Source: Candidatus Obscuribacteraceae bacterium (lineage in GTDB: Bacteria; Cyanobacteriota; Vampirovibrionia; Obscuribacterales; Obscuribacteraceae). From it: a DNA stretch of 64,000 nt. The translations under genes and the position numbers were made by a program. Location of the stretch: assembly GCA_044226015.1 (NCBI GenBank), contig JBGAHS010000002.1, positions 689,571 through 753,570 of the forward strand, read 5' to 3'. Shown in pieces: positions 16,713-25,514 of the stretch. The notes below the pieces were generated by a model that worked only from the letters and a program-made list of their open reading frames with translations, was not told the DNA's origin and searched no databases. Numbering within the stretch: the first letter of the stretch is position 1; each line of letters starts with the position of its first letter.

Positions 16713-16993
16713 TCCTTCATTATGTCCAGCGAAAAGTTTTTGTCAACCAATTACTTCAAAACACTAAGCCCCTATGCCACCACATATGGTGAGGGACAGG
16801 ATTGCTTAAGCGCCTCTAACCCAGATGAGAAAAAGCTCGGAAATGGCTATTTGATTAGGCTTCGCTAAGATACGCAGATCGAACGTGTCGGGTGGGATTT
16901 TTACGATTGCCCGTCGATATACAGCAGACTAAATTTGCATATGGGGAAAGGCAAGGACCTTGAAGTTTTTTATTTGGATGTGAGGTGGAGCTA

Positions 16994-18271
16994 ATGACGG
17001 ACAAAGTAATTCAATTAGATGAAGCGCGCGATAAGACTAGCGAGTCGAAGGACAACTCGAATCAGGCAGGGCAGAATCTAGTTGGCGAGTTGAACAACAA
17101 CAAACAAGAGGCTCTTGCATTGGCGAAGGCTGCGGCAGCTCCCGGACAGTTCCCGGTAGGGTACAGTGTGTTGCCTCCTTACTTGCTGCAAGATCTGGCG
17201 ACCCGTAATCCGCAAAACGGCGACTTCTTAAAGACATACACAAAGACGAAGGACATGCAGGAGACGCCTGTAGTAGTGCGACCAAGAGTCGACACAAATG
17301 CTAATGGCGACCGTGAAGTCTACGACGCCAAAGGCAAGGAAGACCACCCAGGAGACAAGGCTCGCTTCGAAGGAGAGGCAGCAACTGGAGACAATGAAGT
17401 AGACAACGCATACGACTACACTGGAAAAATACGCGACTTTTATCTAAAGGAATACGGACGCAATTCCATTGACGGACAGGGAATGAAATTTATTTCAACT
17501 GTCAACTATGGCGACAACTATGAAAACGCATTCTGGAACGGCTCACAAATGACCTACGGTCGCCCGAGTGACTCAAGCCCCTTCAAGACATTCGTTCTGT
17601 TAGATGTATGCGGACACGAAATCACACATGGCGTCACCGAGAAAGAATCCGGCATGCGCTACTACGGTCAGTCCGGTGCCCTGAACGAAAGTATGTCAGA
17701 CGTATTCGGTGAAATGATTGAGCAATACTCTAAGAAACAAACAGCAGACCAGGCTGACTGGGTAGTCGGAAACGGAATATGGAAAGACACTGTAAAGGGT
17801 CGTGGACTGCGAGACATGTTGAATCCGGGAACTGCCTATGACGATCCAGCAATCGGAAAAGACCCTCAGCCAGCACACATGAAGGATTACTGGAACGGCT
17901 GGGGAGACAATGGTGGCGTGCACTACAACTCCGGCATACCTAACAAGGCGTTTGCCACATTTGCAAAAGCTGTAGGCGGATACGCATGGGAAGATCCAGG
18001 ACACATCTGGTATGACGCAAGAAAAGCTGCAGGAAGTAACCCTGACTTCGCGACATTTGCGTACCATACAATTGAAGCAGCAAAAGCTCGCGGAAAAGCA
18101 GATCTTGTCCAGAAACTAGAAAAGGCTTGGGCTGATGTAGGTGTGGTACCTGCAGCACAAAAAGCTGCCGATACAAAGCCATCAACAGAGTCAGATCCAA
18201 ACAACGATGGCAAGCTTCCTCCACTCGAGAAAGATGATCATGATCACAAACCGCTAAAGAAAGCTGGCTAA
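16994..18271 (+). CDS. M4 family (protealysin-like) zinc metalloprotease, paralog 1
   Basis: PPYLL propeptide motif, NAFWNG, HEITH, GALNES, GGVHYNSGIPN. Confidence 0.93.
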   Translation: MTDKVIQLDEARDKTSESKDNSNQAGQNLVGELNNNKQEALALAKAAAAPGQFPVGYSVLPPYLLQDLATRNPQNGDFLKTYTKTKDMQETPVVVRPRVDTNANGDREVYDAKGKEDHPGDKARFEGEAATGDNEVDNAYDYTGKIRDFYLKEYGRNSIDGQGMKFISTVNYGDNYENAFWNGSQMTYGRPSDSSPFKTFVLLDVCGHEITHGVTEKESGMRYYGQSGALNESMSDVFGEMIEQYSKKQTADQADWVVGNGIWKDTVKGRGLRDMLNPGTAYDDPAIGKDPQPAHMKDYWNGWGDNGGVHYNSGIPNKAFATFAKAVGGYAWEDPGHIWYDARKAAGSNPDFATFAYHTIEAAKARGKADLVQKLEKAWADVGVVPAAQKAADTKPSTESDPNNDGKLPPLEKDDHDHKPLKKAG

Positions 18272-18293
18272 TTCACAGCAATCGAAATTATTT

Positions 18294-18325
18294 GAGAGGC
18301 ACCTTATTTGGTGCCTCTCTTTTTC
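18294..18325 (+). terminator. Intrinsic terminator
   Basis: GAGAGGCACC-ttattt-GGTGCCTCTC followed by T run. Confidence 0.85.
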
Positions 18326-18354
18326 TTCGTGAGCGCGCCAGATTCGTATAGTGA

Positions 18355-18383
18355 GAAGCAGGCTGGAAGCTTGCGCCCCAGGC
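18355..18383. repeat. REP-like dispersed repeat (copies at 22568-22599 and 25745-25773)
   Basis: AAGCAG(G/C)CTGGAAGC..GCG..CCCAGGC shared by three intergenic sites. Confidence 0.7.
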
Positions 18384-18641
18384 GGAAATCCTGCGCCCAA
18401 GCGGGAATCCCGGTGATTCACTCTGCGCCATGGAGATTCGGTGCCTGCGCCCCCAGATTCGCCATACTGCGGCACACAATATCACAACCCAAAACGCTTA
18501 CTGGCATTAGGTTCTGCTCAACTGGTGGTATTGTGCAATGCAAGTGGGATTGCTACGCTTGAAGCCAATTCGTAGCAGTTGGTAGAGTAGCTCTGGACTG
18601 GGGGGTCACATTATTCAGTAGGCAAGGCGAGGTCTTTAGAA

Positions 18642-19895
18642 ATGGACGATAACTCACGTCAAAGAGTCGAGAAAGCTACACCCGTTACCGAGCGAAATGA
18701 AGAAGCAAGCAACAAACTTGCATCCGAAGCAAATGCAAAAACAGGCGAAGTTCTGGCGTTCGCCAAAACTGGCAGCGCAGCACAAAGTTTCAAACCAAGC
18801 GGATTTAGCGTCATTCCTCCATATGTCCTGGAAGATTTAGCCAAGAAAAATCCTGGTCAAGACGGCTTTTTGAAAACGTACAACAAGACAAAGGAAATGC
18901 TTGATTCACCGAGCAAAATAAAACCGAGAGCGGTAGGTGGAAATGATTCTGCCCGGGAAGTTTATGACGCTAAAGGAAAAGAAGTACAACCCGGTGATAA
19001 AGCTCGCTTTGAAGGAGACAAGGCTACTGGTAATGAAGAAGTAGACAACGCCTATGATTACACGGGCTTTATTCGCGACTTCTACAAGAAAGAATACGGG
19101 CGCGATTCTATCGACGGCAATGGCATGAAATTTGTCTCCACCGTAAATTATGGAGACAACTATGAGAATGCATTCTGGAACGGGTCGCAGATGACCTATG
19201 GTCATCCTTCAGCAGACAGCCCTTTCAAAACGTTTGTGCTTCTAGACGTATGCGGACATGAAATCACCCATGGTGTCACAGAAAAAGAATCGAACCTGAC
19301 TTATTACGGTCAATCAGGAGCACTGAACGAAAGCCTCTCGGACGTATTTGGCGAACTAATCGAACAATACTCTAAGAAGCAAACCGCAGATCAAGCCGAT
19401 TGGGTTGTAGGTAATGGCATTTGGAAAGACACGGTCAAAGGACGCGGCTTGCGCGACATGCTAAATCCAGGCACCGCATATGATGACCCAAAAGTTGGAA
19501 AAGACCCACAACCTGCCCACATGAAAGACTATCTGAAAACGTGGGGAGACAATGGAGGCGTTCACTACAACTCGGGAATTCCAAATAAGGCATTTGCAAC
19601 ATTTGCCAGAGCGGTAGGTGGCAACGCGTGGGAAACACCTGGACATATCTGGTATGAAGCCAGAAAAGCAGCAGGTAGCGACCCAAGTTTCGCACAATTT
19701 GCATATCACACGATTGAAGCAGCAAAGACTCGCAAAGATGCAGAACTAGTGAAGAAACTGGAAAAAGCCTGGTCCGACGTAGGTGTGACTCCATCTGCCA
19801 CAGAAAAGGATAATGACACACCAAGCCGTGGCGATGACGGTGACTGGGACGAAATAAGAAAAGGCGTCAAGAAAGGCTTGAAGAAAGCTTCCTAA
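18642..19895 (+). CDS. M4 family (protealysin-like) zinc metalloprotease, paralog 2
   Basis: PPYVL, HEITH, GALNES; highly similar to paralog 1. Confidence 0.93.
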   Translation: MDDNSRQRVEKATPVTERNEEASNKLASEANAKTGEVLAFAKTGSAAQSFKPSGFSVIPPYVLEDLAKKNPGQDGFLKTYNKTKEMLDSPSKIKPRAVGGNDSAREVYDAKGKEVQPGDKARFEGDKATGNEEVDNAYDYTGFIRDFYKKEYGRDSIDGNGMKFVSTVNYGDNYENAFWNGSQMTYGHPSADSPFKTFVLLDVCGHEITHGVTEKESNLTYYGQSGALNESLSDVFGELIEQYSKKQTADQADWVVGNGIWKDTVKGRGLRDMLNPGTAYDDPKVGKDPQPAHMKDYLKTWGDNGGVHYNSGIPNKAFATFARAVGGNAWETPGHIWYEARKAAGSDPSFAQFAYHTIEAAKTRKDAELVKKLEKAWSDVGVTPSATEKDNDTPSRGDDGDWDEIRKGVKKGLKKAS

Positions 19896-21711: not shown

Positions 21712-22470
21712 CTATTTTATTTTGGGAACGCGACCCGTGCCGTGACAAACCGGGCACTTACCTTTGCTCACAGCTTTGCCTTCTTTATCGAACGAAATGA
21801 GCTCTCCAAGATGATGTTCAGAGAATGCTTCCCATGCGCCAGAGTGATTGAACTTGATCCATCGAAGATTTGATTTTTTTCCTTCAGGTGACATGTATTG
21901 CCAGCCAGGCATTGACAGCTTGAGACAATTTGCTGGACAAATACCGCGCTGATAGCAACGAATTGTGCGCGCAGCATTGTCAGCTGTTCGGCGCATTGTC
22001 ATACTTCGAGCATGTTCTTTCAACCAGTCATATTGAACCAACGCTTTTGCGTACTGTTTTTGAGCCTGGTAGGAAGCAGCTAAATATTCGCGCGATTCAT
22101 CGTCTGCTGTCCCCGCGCTCACAAACTTCTCAAATTTTGCAATCGCTTCTTTTGTTTTACCGCTCTTGTACAGCTTAGCGGCTTCGTCAAAACCGGCTGG
22201 TTTAGGCTTTTCAACGGAAGGAAGCGAACGTGGAGCCGCAGGTGGCGATACCGGCGGTGGTGACTGAGCACCTGCTTGCTCTGTGGACCCACCGGCTCCA
22301 TCAGGAGCTTGCTCTGAATCTTTGTCGTCTTTCGACTCGGAAGATTCAATCTTCGGAGGCGGCTTAACCAGCCATGAGTCTGGGCTCTTTTCCTGCGCCG
22401 AAACTGGCGCGGACAGTAGTAAAGCCATTAATAGCGTAGGAAACAATAGACTACTGGCTAAAAATTTCAT
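21712..22470 (-). CDS. Exported TPR-like protein with Cys-rich C-terminus
   Basis: Signal peptide, Pro-rich linker, TPR helices, CPANC and CPVCHGTG. Confidence 0.7.
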   Translation of the reverse strand: MKFLASSLLFPTLLMALLLSAPVSAQEKSPDSWLVKPPPKIESSESKDDKDSEQAPDGAGGSTEQAGAQSPPPVSPPAAPRSLPSVEKPKPAGFDEAAKLYKSGKTKEAIAKFEKFVSAGTADDESREYLAASYQAQKQYAKALVQYDWLKEHARSMTMRRTADNAARTIRCYQRGICPANCLKLSMPGWQYMSPEGKKSNLRWIKFNHSGAWEAFSEHHLGELISFDKEGKAVSKGKCPVCHGTGRVPKIK

Positions 22471-22632
22471 GATAGCGTCCTCTAGACCCACCTCATTCTA
22501 ACCCTGGGTTAGAGGCATCAAAAGCTAATACTGTTCAAAATGCATCTTTTGTCACAAATTTGCATCAGAAGCAGGCTGGAAGCCGGCGCTCTCCCAGGCA
22601 AGCTCCTTCTCACATCTTCTGGGACCAGACGA

Positions 22633-22790
22633 GGCATACATGGATCGACGCCACATAGATTCGCAGACATGGACTCCTGCCACGTTGATCCGCATACATG
22701 GATCCGTTCCACATTGATTCGCATACATGGCACATCTATTCGCAGACATGGACTCCGTGCCACGTTGATCCGCATACATGGATTCGCACA
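22633..22790. repeat. Degenerate ~29-30 bp tandem repeat
   Basis: About six units like GAT(T/C)CGCA(G/T)ACATGGA..C.TGCCACGTT. Confidence 0.8.
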
Positions 22791-22862
22791 CAAAATAGTT
22801 GGGGAGCGGGGCGGCAGCTTGCAGCACACAGAAACTGTACGAGACAGAATAATTAGAATCTC

Positions 22863-22896
22863 AAAAAGCAGTAAAGGCAGCTTGCGCTGCCTCTGC
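22863..22896 (-). terminator. Intrinsic terminator
   Basis: GCAG-AGGCAGC-GCAA-GCTGCCT-TTACTGC-TTTTT on minus strand. Confidence 0.8.
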
Positions 22897-23266
22897 TGTG
22901 TCTTCCCCTAAAAAAGTCTTTGTCTTTTACCGCTATTTTGTCTATTACCGCTATGCCTGTAATTTATTGCTCTCTTCGATATCCCATTGGGCAGAGGTCT
23001 AACTTCCACCTCCTCCACATCAGCCGTCCTCTGCCTTGTGGGATTTCGATTTGGCGCTTCCTTTTAGTCGGTCATGAAAACTTTGCACATTGTGTCTTTA
23101 TTAGAATCCTTCCGGAAGAGATGACTTCCACCCAACCACCACTATCAACTTCATGCCATCTCTTCCGGGGATTCGTTCCGCTCCTGTCTAAATCAAACTT
23201 TCAATCAATCTTTGTTGGACTTCACGATTTCTCTTTTCTGCTTCGCTCGCTCTCTCGTCTCTCAAC
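22863..23266 (-). ncRNA. Candidate structured sRNA (or long structured 3' UTR)
   Basis: Two long hairpins (23104-23174, 22976-23049) with G-U pairs favouring the minus strand, similar loops ending GGUGGAAG, GCAA-loop terminator, TAGTAT -10 at 23278-23273. Confidence 0.5.
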
Positions 23267-23328
23267 TCTCTTATACTATTTCTTTTTTGTAGGGAACGTG
23301 TGAGCCGTTCGTGAGGGTTTTGTGAGTC

Positions 23329-23706
23329 CTAGTGCCTGACTGGAACAGTTTGTCGGGTCAAGCTTTCCTTGGCTTTGCACGCAACATATGCATTCTCATC
23401 CTCAGTGAGAATTTTGAGAAGATCGACCGGTGCATCGAGATTTTCAGCAACGCCATAACGCACAGTTGCGAGGTCATCACATGCGAGCTTCTCCATAATT
23501 CGATAGGAGATGCATGGGTTTTGCGCGACGCTTAAACGCACGTCCCAATTTGCATCTGAAGCGAGCTCTTCCAAAATCGCATCAGGCGTGTGCGGATTAG
23601 ACGCTACTTGCCTGCGTATAACATGGTCTTGCGCTGTGGCCAATTTGGCCAGTACCTTTCCCGGCGTATGCGGGTTGCTTGCTATTACATAATAAACATC
23701 TGACAT
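23329..23706 (-). CDS. Leucine-rich-variant/HEAT repeat protein
   Basis: Repeats of VRxxVAxNPxTP. Confidence 0.85.
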   Translation of the reverse strand: MSDVYYVIASNPHTPGKVLAKLATAQDHVIRRQVASNPHTPDAILEELASDANWDVRLSVAQNPCISYRIMEKLACDDLATVRYGVAENLDAPVDLLKILTEDENAYVACKAKESLTRQTVPVRH

Positions 23707-23744
23707 GACTGTAAACTCCTAAATTCTGATGACGCTCAGTTCCA

Positions 23745-24170
23745 CTAATTGCAGTGACTATGCTCTGCCCACAGGTCATTTATTACCGAGAGAACCTGTT
23801 GCAACTTTGCTCCATTCACCGGCTTCACCATGTAATAGTTCATGTGAGAATCCAGGGCGCGTTGAATATCATTTTGATCATCTGACACAGTTAGCAAGAC
23901 AACGGGAATGTCATCTGCCTTAAGCAAAGTATGTACCTCTTCAAGGAATTCATGTCCTCCTTTTCGAGGCATGTTCAAGTCCAAAATAATAAGATCAGGT
24001 CGCGAAGCTTTTGAATACTCGCCATCCTTCTTTATGTAGCTGATTGCGTGCTCACCATCAGTCACAGCATGCAGATCAACATCAATGTGACAGTCTGCAA
24101 TTGCTTCTTCAACAAGGCGGCGATCAGCTGCGTGATCTTCGACTAAAAGTACATTCAATTTCTTATTCAT
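23745..24170 (-). CDS. Single-domain response regulator (Rcp1/CheY-like)
   Basis: LLVED, PDLIILDLNMP, VKP; no output domain. Confidence 0.92.
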   Translation of the reverse strand: MNKKLNVLLVEDHAADRRLVEEAIADCHIDVDLHAVTDGEHAISYIKKDGEYSKASRPDLIILDLNMPRKGGHEFLEEVHTLLKADDIPVVLLTVSDDQNDIQRALDSHMNYYMVKPVNGAKLQQVLSVINDLWAEHSHCN

Positions 24171-24196: not shown

Positions 24197-25411
24197 CTAG
24201 GACTTACTTGGAATTTTGAAACAGAATCGCGCTCCTTTGCCGTGTTCTGATTCCACCCAGATTTCACCGCTATGCTGGACAACGATTGCTTTGCATATCG
24301 CCAGTCCCAATCCACTGCCTGGGTAAGTTTGCGTTGAGTGCAGTCGTTTGAACATCTCAAATATTTGACGTTGATACTGCCTTTCTATACCAATTCCGTT
24401 ATCTTGCACTGCAAAAATATAGCCTGAATCATACTTTTCGCAAGAGACATGGATTACCGGAGCCCGGTCAGCACTCTGAAATTTTAGAGCGTTGCCTATT
24501 AAATTTTGGAACAGCTGAGTAAGCTGAATTTTGTTTGCAATTAAGCGAGGCAATTCGTCGTGCGTGACTGTGGCTCCGGTCTCCGTGATCTTCACTTGCA
24601 GGTTGGCACAGGCATCCTCGAGGGCTTTCTCCACCTCCACATTCTCAAACTTCCTGGTGCTGTACGACACCGTCGCGTGCTCAAGAATGCCTTTAACCAA
24701 CCGCTCCATGCGTTTCGTGCCATCAACTATGTATTCAAGAAATTCATTTCCGCTTGCATCAAGCTTGTCTTTATACCTCGACTCTAACAATCCGACGTAG
24801 CCTTGAATAGCTCGAAGTGGCTCTTGCAAATCGTGCGATGCTACTCGCGCAAATTGCTGCAACATAGCGTTCGACCTGCCTAACTCATCTACCGTTCTTC
24901 GAAGCTTCTCCGCTGTGATTTTGTTTTTCGCAATTTCCTCCGACAATTGCTTGTTCGATGCAGCCAACTCAGAGGTGCGCAATGCGACGGTATCCTCGAG
25001 TTCCACAGCGCTTCTTCTTATGTGCGCGGTGCTGCGATTAGTCAACAAAATCATGAGAAGCATTATCGAAAACGGCAACGCATGACTAAAATCAAATTGG
25101 AAGATGGGCTGCGTAAAGAAATAGTCAAATAGAACGAGACTAAGAATACTTGCCCATAGTGCTGGTCCAAGGGTCGATCGGTATGCCAGCAGATATGTGG
25201 TGGCGAAGTACAGCATAATCACATCAATTAGACTGAATCGATAGCCGCCCTGAAAACACAGGTAGGTCACACTCGAGATTGCAACTGTAGCAATCAGATA
25301 TTGCATCGTCAATGATTCTAAATGCGGGGGATTTAAGACCCTATCTAGAAAGTTGTCTATGCACATCCTTGGGTCGTTGCCACATTTTTGGTTTTCAACG
25401 AGCGTGGTCAT
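24197..25411 (-). CDS. Sensor histidine kinase with DUF4118-like TM domain and Cph1-type kinase core
   Basis: FARVASHDLQEPLR, QLFQNLIGNA, GSGLGLAI; four TM helices. Confidence 0.9.
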   Translation of the reverse strand: MTTLVENQKCGNDPRMCIDNFLDRVLNPPHLESLTMQYLIATVAISSVTYLCFQGGYRFSLIDVIMLYFATTYLLAYRSTLGPALWASILSLVLFDYFFTQPIFQFDFSHALPFSIMLLMILLTNRSTAHIRRSAVELEDTVALRTSELAASNKQLSEEIAKNKITAEKLRRTVDELGRSNAMLQQFARVASHDLQEPLRAIQGYVGLLESRYKDKLDASGNEFLEYIVDGTKRMERLVKGILEHATVSYSTRKFENVEVEKALEDACANLQVKITETGATVTHDELPRLIANKIQLTQLFQNLIGNALKFQSADRAPVIHVSCEKYDSGYIFAVQDNGIGIERQYQRQIFEMFKRLHSTQTYPGSGLGLAICKAIVVQHSGEIWVESEHGKGARFCFKIPSKS

Positions 25412-25454
25412 TTGTGCGTTTCCTCTTCCAATGATTCGATAATATCGCTTTGTT

Positions 25455-25514
25455 GTGGGGGTCTTGTGAGAACGAAGTGATGATTTCGTGAGTAAATTGT
25501 GAGGAACTCGTGAG
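25455..25514. promoter_or_regulatory. 11-bp-phased GTGAG direct-repeat array (second array at 23300-23326)
   Basis: GTGGG/GTGAG/GTGAT/GTGAG/GTGAG/GTGAG at 25455, 25466, 25477, 25488, 25499, 25510. Confidence 0.65.

Follow-up and report, generated by a model that had tools for sequence, protein, structure and literature searches.

A lineage-restricted structured RNA candidate with a start-less Shine-Dalgarno motif downstream of a kinase-receiver-LRV operon in Obscuribacterales

Bacterial sRNAs characterized so far act in most cases by pairing with mRNAs or by titrating a protein. The protein-titrating RNAs CsrB, CsrC, RsmY and RsmZ, as they are generally described, resemble the RNA candidate presented here in length, in purine richness, in adjoining two-component genes and in mimicking ribosome-binding sites; they differ from it in that its carriers have no detected csrA gene, its GGA triplets are not enriched and its loops are large. 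A start-less Shine-Dalgarno (SD) sequence of a different kind is STAB-SD, the stabilizer of cryIII mRNA, for which a review gives the proposal that a strong SD unused for translation holds a 30S subunit, and states that 30S binding without translation can stabilize the RNA (PMC7509114). The cuckoo RNAs and CcsR (RSs0680) are modular, vary in hairpin number, carry a conserved loop motif related to ribosome-binding sites and lie behind a small-protein gene (PMC4615179, PMC8034643). The large bacterial ncRNA OLE possesses a conserved helix, P6, in which an SD-like strand is paired to a CCUC-type strand and which binds bS21 through this SD-like/CCUCCU duplex (PMC12054373). Finally, an extended SD drives translation of rpsU in Bacteroidota, a phylum that otherwise ignores SDs, and is connected with autoregulation by bS21 (PMC9976891).

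The element compared here with these systems lies in a window of 64,000 nucleotides from a Candidatus Obscuribacteraceae bacterium (genome G000; the window is G000:C1:689571-753570), and its features are compiled in Table 1. An earlier note, made from the letters alone, had proposed a structured sRNA candidate downstream of an operon for a sensor kinase, a receiver and an LRV-repeat protein. The position behind a DUF4118 sensor kinase gene, a single-domain receiver gene and an LRV-repeat gene was borne out, and homologues, covariation and a conserved promoter and terminator support the proposal. We regard the element as real, and as an uncatalogued, lineage-restricted candidate for a structured RNA gene whose transcription is predicted. 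No description of this RNA was found in the literature covered, which left subscription papers and preprint supplements outside its scope, nor did the literature searched contain an ncRNA paper for the lineage.

Table 1. Features of the predicted RNA and of the operon upstream of it (positions in the window).
Feature	Position	Strand	Remarks
Predicted sRNA	23266-22863	minus	about 404 nt, 64% purine, A-rich linkers; 5' end deduced from the -10 box
Hairpin 1	23104..23174	minus	stem GGAAGAGA/UCUCUUCC; GUGGUGG in loop; z -5.0; homologous hairpin in G060, G063, G064, G065
Conserved single-stranded lead-in to hairpin 2	23050..23069	minus	GAC-N4-5-GGARCGCCAAA; CGC invariant in 9/9 modules
Hairpin 2 (type-A module)	22976..23049	minus	stem GGCAGAGG/CCUCUGCC; 30-nt loop; z -4.3; covariation
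GGAGGUG, start-less extended SD in hairpin-2 loop	23007..23013	minus	invariant in 9/9 type-A loops
Intrinsic terminator	22863..22908	minus	conserved GGGAAGAC lead-in, GCAA-tetraloop hairpin and U-tract; lead-in and hairpin also in G060, G063, G064, G065
Four phased direct-repeat boxes, CTCACA-like, 11-bp period	23288..23326; starts 23326, 23315, 23304, 23293	minus	predicted activator site; conserved in 7/7 homologues
-10 box TAGTAT	23273..23278	minus	TAnnnT begins 26 nt past third-box start in 6/7 homologues, 27 nt in G063
LRV-repeat protein gene, 125 aa	23329..23706	minus	Pfam LRV, E 1.9e-17
Single-domain response regulator gene	23745..24170	minus	Pfam Response_reg; GGAGG ribosome-binding site, -10.2 kcal/mol
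DUF4118-HisKA-HATPase sensor kinase gene	24197..25411	minus	Pfam domains
Kinase-operon promoter	25439..25514	minus	six phased CTCAC-like boxes and TATTAT, same 26-nt spacing

Most of the structural description given in the earlier note could be reproduced. Both long hairpins and the TAGTAT box were found where it had placed them, each hairpin being more stable than 200 of 200 shuffles; the loop sequences it had quoted (23142-23125 and 23018-23003) are correct, and the GCAA-loop terminator with its U-tract is the sole terminator-like site within 22400-23800. It had also recognized no hallmarks of RNase P, tmRNA, SRP or 6S RNA and no credible long open reading frame. The Rfam covariance models returned only two chance hits in the window (E 0.95 and 2) and nothing significant in eight homologous loci, the CsrB/Rsm and OLE models being unmatched. 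The only frame of at least 80 aa across the element has 127 codons on the plus strand, and when translated it matches homologues over short or stop-interrupted stretches; the 17- and 18-codon peptides proposed in the note are not conserved. A match to a mobile repeat was not seen either, the element being present in G000 as a single copy. Two statements of the note hold in part. The GGUGGAAG end that the twin loops share is peculiar to G000; what homologues keep instead is GGAGGUG in the loop that corresponds to hairpin 2. G-U pairs do favour the minus strand in hairpin 1, as claimed, and fail to do so in hairpin 2 and in the terminator.

The strand call thus depends on promoter and terminator, because the G-U pairs are uninformative (G-U and A-C cells are tied 3:3 over 12 aligned modules) and plus-strand folds are as good (-33.0 versus -30.1 kcal/mol for hairpin 2 and -20.5 versus -19.8 kcal/mol for the terminator, plus versus minus). 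Larger z-scores on the plus strand (-4.6 versus -3.1 overall) and a more stable antisense hairpin in six of ten modules would even suit a functional plus strand, that is, a cuckoo-like RNA whose C-rich anti-SD loops block the ribosome-binding sites of mRNAs. Against that, the conserved promoter is oriented along the minus strand in all seven genomes, the terminator U-tract of G000 and the GNRA loop of four of the five homologues of that type lie on the minus strand, and the far flank varies between genomes, with no shared plus-strand promoter seen in it; we therefore consider a functional plus strand very improbable. Membership in the cuckoo/CcsR group was rejected, since CCUCCUCCC does not occur in the loops of the predicted strand, and the opposite strand has CCACCUCCUCCAC in one loop only. 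The present RNA is rather a mirror image, with the SD GGAGGUG in its loops where cuckoo loops carry the anti-SD CCUCCUCCC; its stems are long, conserved in sequence and separated by A-rich linkers, and its lineage is unrelated. Like the cuckoo RNAs it is modular, with a variable number of hairpins and an RBS-related loop motif, and lies behind a small-protein gene; its modules number from 1 to 5 or 6 and have long linkers between them, those of the cuckoo RNAs being two to four and adjacent (PMC4615179).

Conservation of the fold was assessed with a covariance model for which nine hairpins from five genomes (G000, G060, G063, G064 and G065) served as input. RNAalifold on the raw MAFFT alignment had yielded no pairs, the 3' arms being misaligned, hence the realignment to the model. 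Among 12 model-aligned hairpins 92% of the cells are paired and 11 of 16 pairs are changed on both sides, which none of 500 shuffles reached, in an alignment that was fitted to the model and combines hairpins of different paralogues, and in which the register of the outer stem is uncertain. When the alignment was slid as a control, 31-57% of the cells were paired. Covariation was also examined on the nine-hairpin alignment. The clearest covarying pair, in the inner stem, appears as C-G, U-A and A-U. The stem consensus GGYAGAG(G)/(C)CUCURCC recurs two to five times per RNA, including hairpins without G-rich loops, and the loops are 21-37 nt long. Of the features expected of a trans-encoded sRNA, a covarying conserved structure is thus present in this model-fitted alignment, and an own promoter and an intrinsic terminator are indicated by their conservation.

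Homologues occur in seven of the eight genomes of one Obscuribacterales genus, g1. Following the LRV orthologues led to elements directly behind the LRV gene in G060, G063, G064 and G065, and a search with the covariance model gave E values below 1e-9 in 7 of 107 genomes of the order, all of them in g1, with G059 and G062 newly detected in this way. In the eighth member, G061, the syntenic position has no more than a degenerate hairpin. The model hit in G061 is antisense to a proline-rich ORF. In genus g28 one related hairpin, without the promoter, lies in the LRV 3' region of both genomes; these hairpins were found by synteny and are scored weakly or not at all by the model. At class level (151 genomes) strong scores were confined to g1, and the three weak matches outside it are one terminator-like hairpin and two coding-like stretches. 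Nineteen weak order-level loci were inspected, none of which resembled the module, and the element was absent 3' of spoIIM in 20 further loci. None of 43 loci retrieved with a metagenome pattern (39) and a viral pattern (4) passed covariance model R2. A genome pattern scan with at least 119 loci produced four strong scores, all titled Candidatus Obscuribacterales and possibly from the same genomes as the g1 sample.

Overall identity of the RNA to that of G000 is 0.55-0.58 in the four closest homologues, and lengths range from 409 to 685 nt, reaching about 820-940 nt in G059 and G062. Hairpin copies number two in G000, G060, G063 and G065, three in G064 and five to six in G059 and G062, where the loops of the extra hairpins are mostly A-rich. 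These extra hairpins bear a loose likeness to the stem of Y RNA. A Ro60 (TROVE) gene is present in G059 and G062, two of five genomes tested, and absent from G000, G064 and G065; its presence coincides with the long RNA form (L288, L289), which may reflect shared ancestry only. A Y RNA/YrlA reading of the RNA in the window was not supported, the Ro60 gene being absent in G000. A DNA contig of run X6 contains the 48 terminator bases of 22865-22912 exactly, with both flanks different; it may stem from the form that the RNA takes in a relative, or the terminator may have been reused.

The long forms also bear on whether the RNA encodes small proteins, in which case the loop SD would be a start site of translation, either genuine or decayed. 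Within them G059 and G062 hold an ORF of 73-75 aa (L056:1141-1362 and L054:1135-1362, both on the minus strand) that is 65% identical between the two, shows synonymous codon changes by eye and is predicted to be helical, and in G068 an AUG 8 nt past the SD opens a 20-aa hydrophobic peptide. However, strong matches to the 73-75 aa ORF exist in 2 of 107 genomes only and not in G000, the loop SD is followed by a different frame or none, peptides after the SD being absent or unrelated, and a 1-nt indel separates G059 from G062 inside the module; a coding function is accordingly quite improbable. Neither a Pfam match nor a database relative other than itself was found for the 73-aa ORF of G059, the Atlas hits lying below 0.9. 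In G062 the end of the ORF and the next hairpin appear to be tandemly duplicated.

The promoter separates the element from the gene upstream. The note had offered a long 3' UTR as an alternative, and for genus g1 a pure 3' UTR fails: in two of seven genomes, G059 and G062, the element retains its promoter and sits behind a gene for a protein kinase or a polyketide synthase-like protein instead of LRV. Because the promoter moves with the element away from LRV and behind unrelated genes, the element is not merely the LRV 3' UTR, and we infer that it forms a transcription unit of its own. The one-hairpin form of g28, which lacks the promoter, may be an LRV 3' UTR. In G063 promoter and element are still beside LRV, yet 16 kb away from spoIIM.

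Within the genus, the promoter pattern has one match each in six of eight genomes, every one at the RNA. Across the order, a pattern derived from the promoter matched 12 of 107 genomes, compared with one for the reversed control; six of these matches are at the RNA, and the remaining six belong to other genera, where they precede or adjoin different protein genes. In G000 the kinase-operon promoter is the second-best site genome-wide, scoring 30.8 compared with 15.4 for the next of 27 sites. As it is the only other strong site of this genome, the RNA and the kinase-receiver-LRV operon are probably co-regulated. Weak CTCACA-box sites precede several genes for large, exported-looking or low-complexity proteins in G000, and in other genera of the order the phased CTCACA-box promoter likewise stands upstream of large, often exported-looking or low-complexity proteins (L303, L304, L306, L307, L314). 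Together the CTCACA-box sites may constitute a previously undescribed regulon.

With about 98-99% identity, contigs from RNA runs (X8, X10, X20) match portions of the operon, namely of its genes for the kinase, the receiver and the LRV protein. On 22863-23280 no RNA-run contig was placed at 90% likeness, nor at 80% (X8 and X10 only), contigs being able to show presence and not absence. Two of the contigs terminate close to the start predicted for the kinase (25418 and 25422), one with an adapter loose end, and contigs cannot mark a start.

A sponge for CsrA of the CsrB/RsmY type, the idea first put forward for this element, is hardly tenable. A GGA does occur in loop 2, and G063 has five CAGGA where 1.1 are expected, but csrA (PF02599) was not found in any of the eight genomes of g1 or in g28, and the five of 107 order genomes in which it scores above cut-off do not carry the RNA. 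Nor do the many GGA triplets noted earlier stand out, with 13 observed against 12.3 expected (p 0.48) and enrichment in only one of seven homologues; six of seven RNAs show none. The loops of 21-37 nt, moreover, are not the short GGA loops of such sponges.

What is invariant is the loop motif. Each RNA has one type-A hairpin (hairpin 2 in G000), which follows a lead-in containing CGC and displays GGAGGUG in nine of nine loops, the remainder of the loop being variable; in eight of nine genomes the full motif is found in one loop per RNA. The obvious partner of this conserved loop, one that the earlier note had not considered, appears to be the 16S rRNA tail: that of G000 reads GGAUCACCUCCUUU and is complementary to GGAGGUG. 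The best duplex with the 16S tail amounts to -14.9 to -19.7 kcal/mol in nine of ten sequences and to -11.2 in the remnant of G061. At 1209 ATG starts of G000 the median SD energy is -5.6 kcal/mol and 0.3% reach -14, in a comparison of the best window per RNA with a fixed window per gene that favours the RNA. GGAGGUG itself serves as SD at 4 of these 1209 starts and GGAG at 23%, this genome using ordinary SDs. GUGGUGG of hairpin 1 pairs more weakly with the tail (-9.1 kcal/mol in G000).

No conserved start codon accompanies the motif. After ten GGAGGUG loops, start codons are lacking in four (including G000, where the 14 positions checked after GGAGG contain none), lie only 2-5 nt away in five and 8 nt away in one (G068), and the peptides behind the loop SDs are mutually unrelated. 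A terminator follows within about 100 nt of the loop SD in G000, and ORFs downstream inside the unit are confined to G059 and G062. The G000 loop resembles STAB-SD in that its SD is strong (-16.4 kcal/mol with the 16S tail of that genome) and that no start codon lies at a distance suited to initiation. The setting is different: STAB-SD is a cis element of an mRNA leader (PMC7509114), and the present SD is predicted to occupy the loop of a hairpin halfway along an RNA that stands by itself, behind which G000 has no gene. GGAGGUG is predicted to be unpaired with a probability of 0.76 in G000; three homologues reach 0.93-0.94, four loops have 0.43-0.65 and two have 0.20-0.26. Pairing of the motif is thus predicted to predominate in G059 and G062 and to be about half in G063, G068 and G069.

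Our preferred reading, to which we assign a probability of roughly 0.4, is that a regulated sRNA binds free 30S subunits through a start-less super SD loop. Conservation, covariation, promoter architecture, complementarity to the 16S tail and the lack of a conserved start codon are the support in hand. The geometry of the direct-repeat boxes resembles that of OmpR/PhoB-like sites, and a putative activator binding these repeats would switch on the RNA together with the kinase-receiver-LRV operon. Long stems would then keep the GGAGGUG loop open, and 30S subunits could dock there via the 16S 3' tail without initiating. For an exposed, start-less and over-strong SD the 16S tail of free 30S subunits would be the simplest partner, a choice that we make tentatively and at somewhat less than even odds. 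Subunits might thereby be titrated from the weak-SD bulk of mRNAs, which would favour strong-SD messages such as those of the receiver gene or rpsU; 30S docking could also protect the RNA from decay, as STAB-SD does. A further contact, to bS21, may come from the conserved stems (GGYAGAGG/CCUCURCC), which are similar to an SD:anti-SD duplex. Several points speak against binding of 30S subunits. In five genomes the 7-mer is predicted to be partly inaccessible. It is the stem that is repeated, a feature that 30S binding explains poorly, and the full motif usually occurs in a single loop per RNA. One site per RNA would titrate ribosomes only if the RNA were very abundant. A G-rich seed, finally, suits protein or mRNA partners equally well.

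Alternatively, the RNA would act by base-pairing. Its G-rich loop would then be a seed for CACCUCC in mRNAs, where pairing might for instance release an SD sequestered by an upstream anti-SD, or it would soak up a C-rich sRNA. The loop length of 21-37 nt is suitable for a seed, candidates for Hfq-like and KhpA/B proteins are present, and in two leaders an anti-SD hairpin covers the GGAGG of the leader itself. Such sites, however, were found in only 2 of 1758 SD-bearing leaders tested, one of them before a transposase-like ORF, and no C-rich loop partner stood out, as judged by eye, among the 43 intergenic CACCUCC sites listed, one of which is the 16S tail. Base-pairing with mRNAs or sRNAs therefore seems unlikely to us.

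A protein partner other than CsrA is somewhat easier to envisage, though still doubtful. The repeated stems, with or without RBS-like loops, would here titrate bS21 by mimicking the SD:anti-SD duplex, or a repressor of GGAGG sites like the one in the ribosome-binding site of the receiver gene. Such a decoy would suit the repetition of a conserved stem sequence two to five times per RNA even where G-rich loops are missing, the GGAGG or GAGG in the receiver ribosome-binding site of all nine g1/g28 loci with the gene in view, and the KhpA/B homologues and sub-threshold Hfq-like ORF of the genome. A precedent is the binding of bS21 by OLE P6, but the present RNA has no Rfam OLE match and a far simpler architecture, its stems have CCUCU in place of CCUCCU, and a contact with bS21 is hypothetical (PMC12054373). 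The stems match CCUCU and not the exact 16S tail, the partner proteins are hypothetical candidates only, and a decoy alone leaves the invariant loop 7-mer unexplained.

The rpsU gene of G000 has an unusually strong SD, -14.1 kcal/mol with a UUG start, compared with -4.0 to -11.2 for 25 S10-spc-alpha genes whose starts and names were assigned by eye, which could point to bS21 as the titrated protein. Yet such an SD is found throughout the family (median -12.4 in 34 loci, calculated with the 16S tail of G000 throughout and including one mis-picked start), and the RNA is confined to two genera. Being family-wide, the strong SD of rpsU is no evidence for the RNA itself. The gene lies at G000:C1:801374-801535 (L292), and the UUG start with a strong SD recurs at L290-L294 and L315-L343. 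The feature recalls the bS21 autoregulation of Bacteroidota, from which the genome of the window differs in using ordinary SDs (PMC9976891).

Binding of 30S subunits and of bS21 may also be combined. It is tempting to speculate, as a possibility that we hold to be clearly less probable than 30S binding as such, that the RNA is a signal-induced chromosomal 'ribosome decoy' whose loop captures 30S subunits, perhaps preferentially those without bS21, while the repeated SD:anti-SD-like stems hold bS21. Translation initiation would then be re-tuned by an RNA that has no mRNA target.

An sRNA with the anti-SD tail of 16S rRNA as its conserved partner would represent a different way of controlling translation. 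The tail is near-universal, so that the hypothesis is easily tested, laboratory 30S subunits being suitable for assays of RNA transcribed in vitro. Read modestly, the locus provides a predicted RNA family without an Rfam match and a defined promoter motif that links this RNA to a two-component locus, within a narrow range, namely two genera of uncultured bacteria.

Several repeats surround the element. An 18-nt tandem duplication (22919-22954) is located inside the 3' linker of the RNA, and a second hairpin (22806-22835), 63 nt downstream of the terminator, has 10 nt in common with it. Just downstream of the terminator (22634-22786) a 29-nt unit is repeated in tandem about 5.4 times; this array is single in G000, was not seen behind homologous RNAs and also occurs in DNA contigs from the runs X6 and X9. 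A short palindromic, REP-like repeat (22568-22599) has eight weak look-alikes listed elsewhere in the genome, most of them matching these positions, one of which adjoins a 20-nt tandem array (L002). Between the RNA and spoIIM, G000 has an exported-looking ORF of 259 aa with CxxC motifs and no Pfam match (21712-22491, minus strand), whose place in homologues is taken by other genes or none. Farther away, at 16985-19895, two tandem paralogous ORFs of 417-428 aa with a HEITH zinc-protease motif, presumably thermolysin-like, diverge without overlap, at 37 nt, from the region of an RDD gene.
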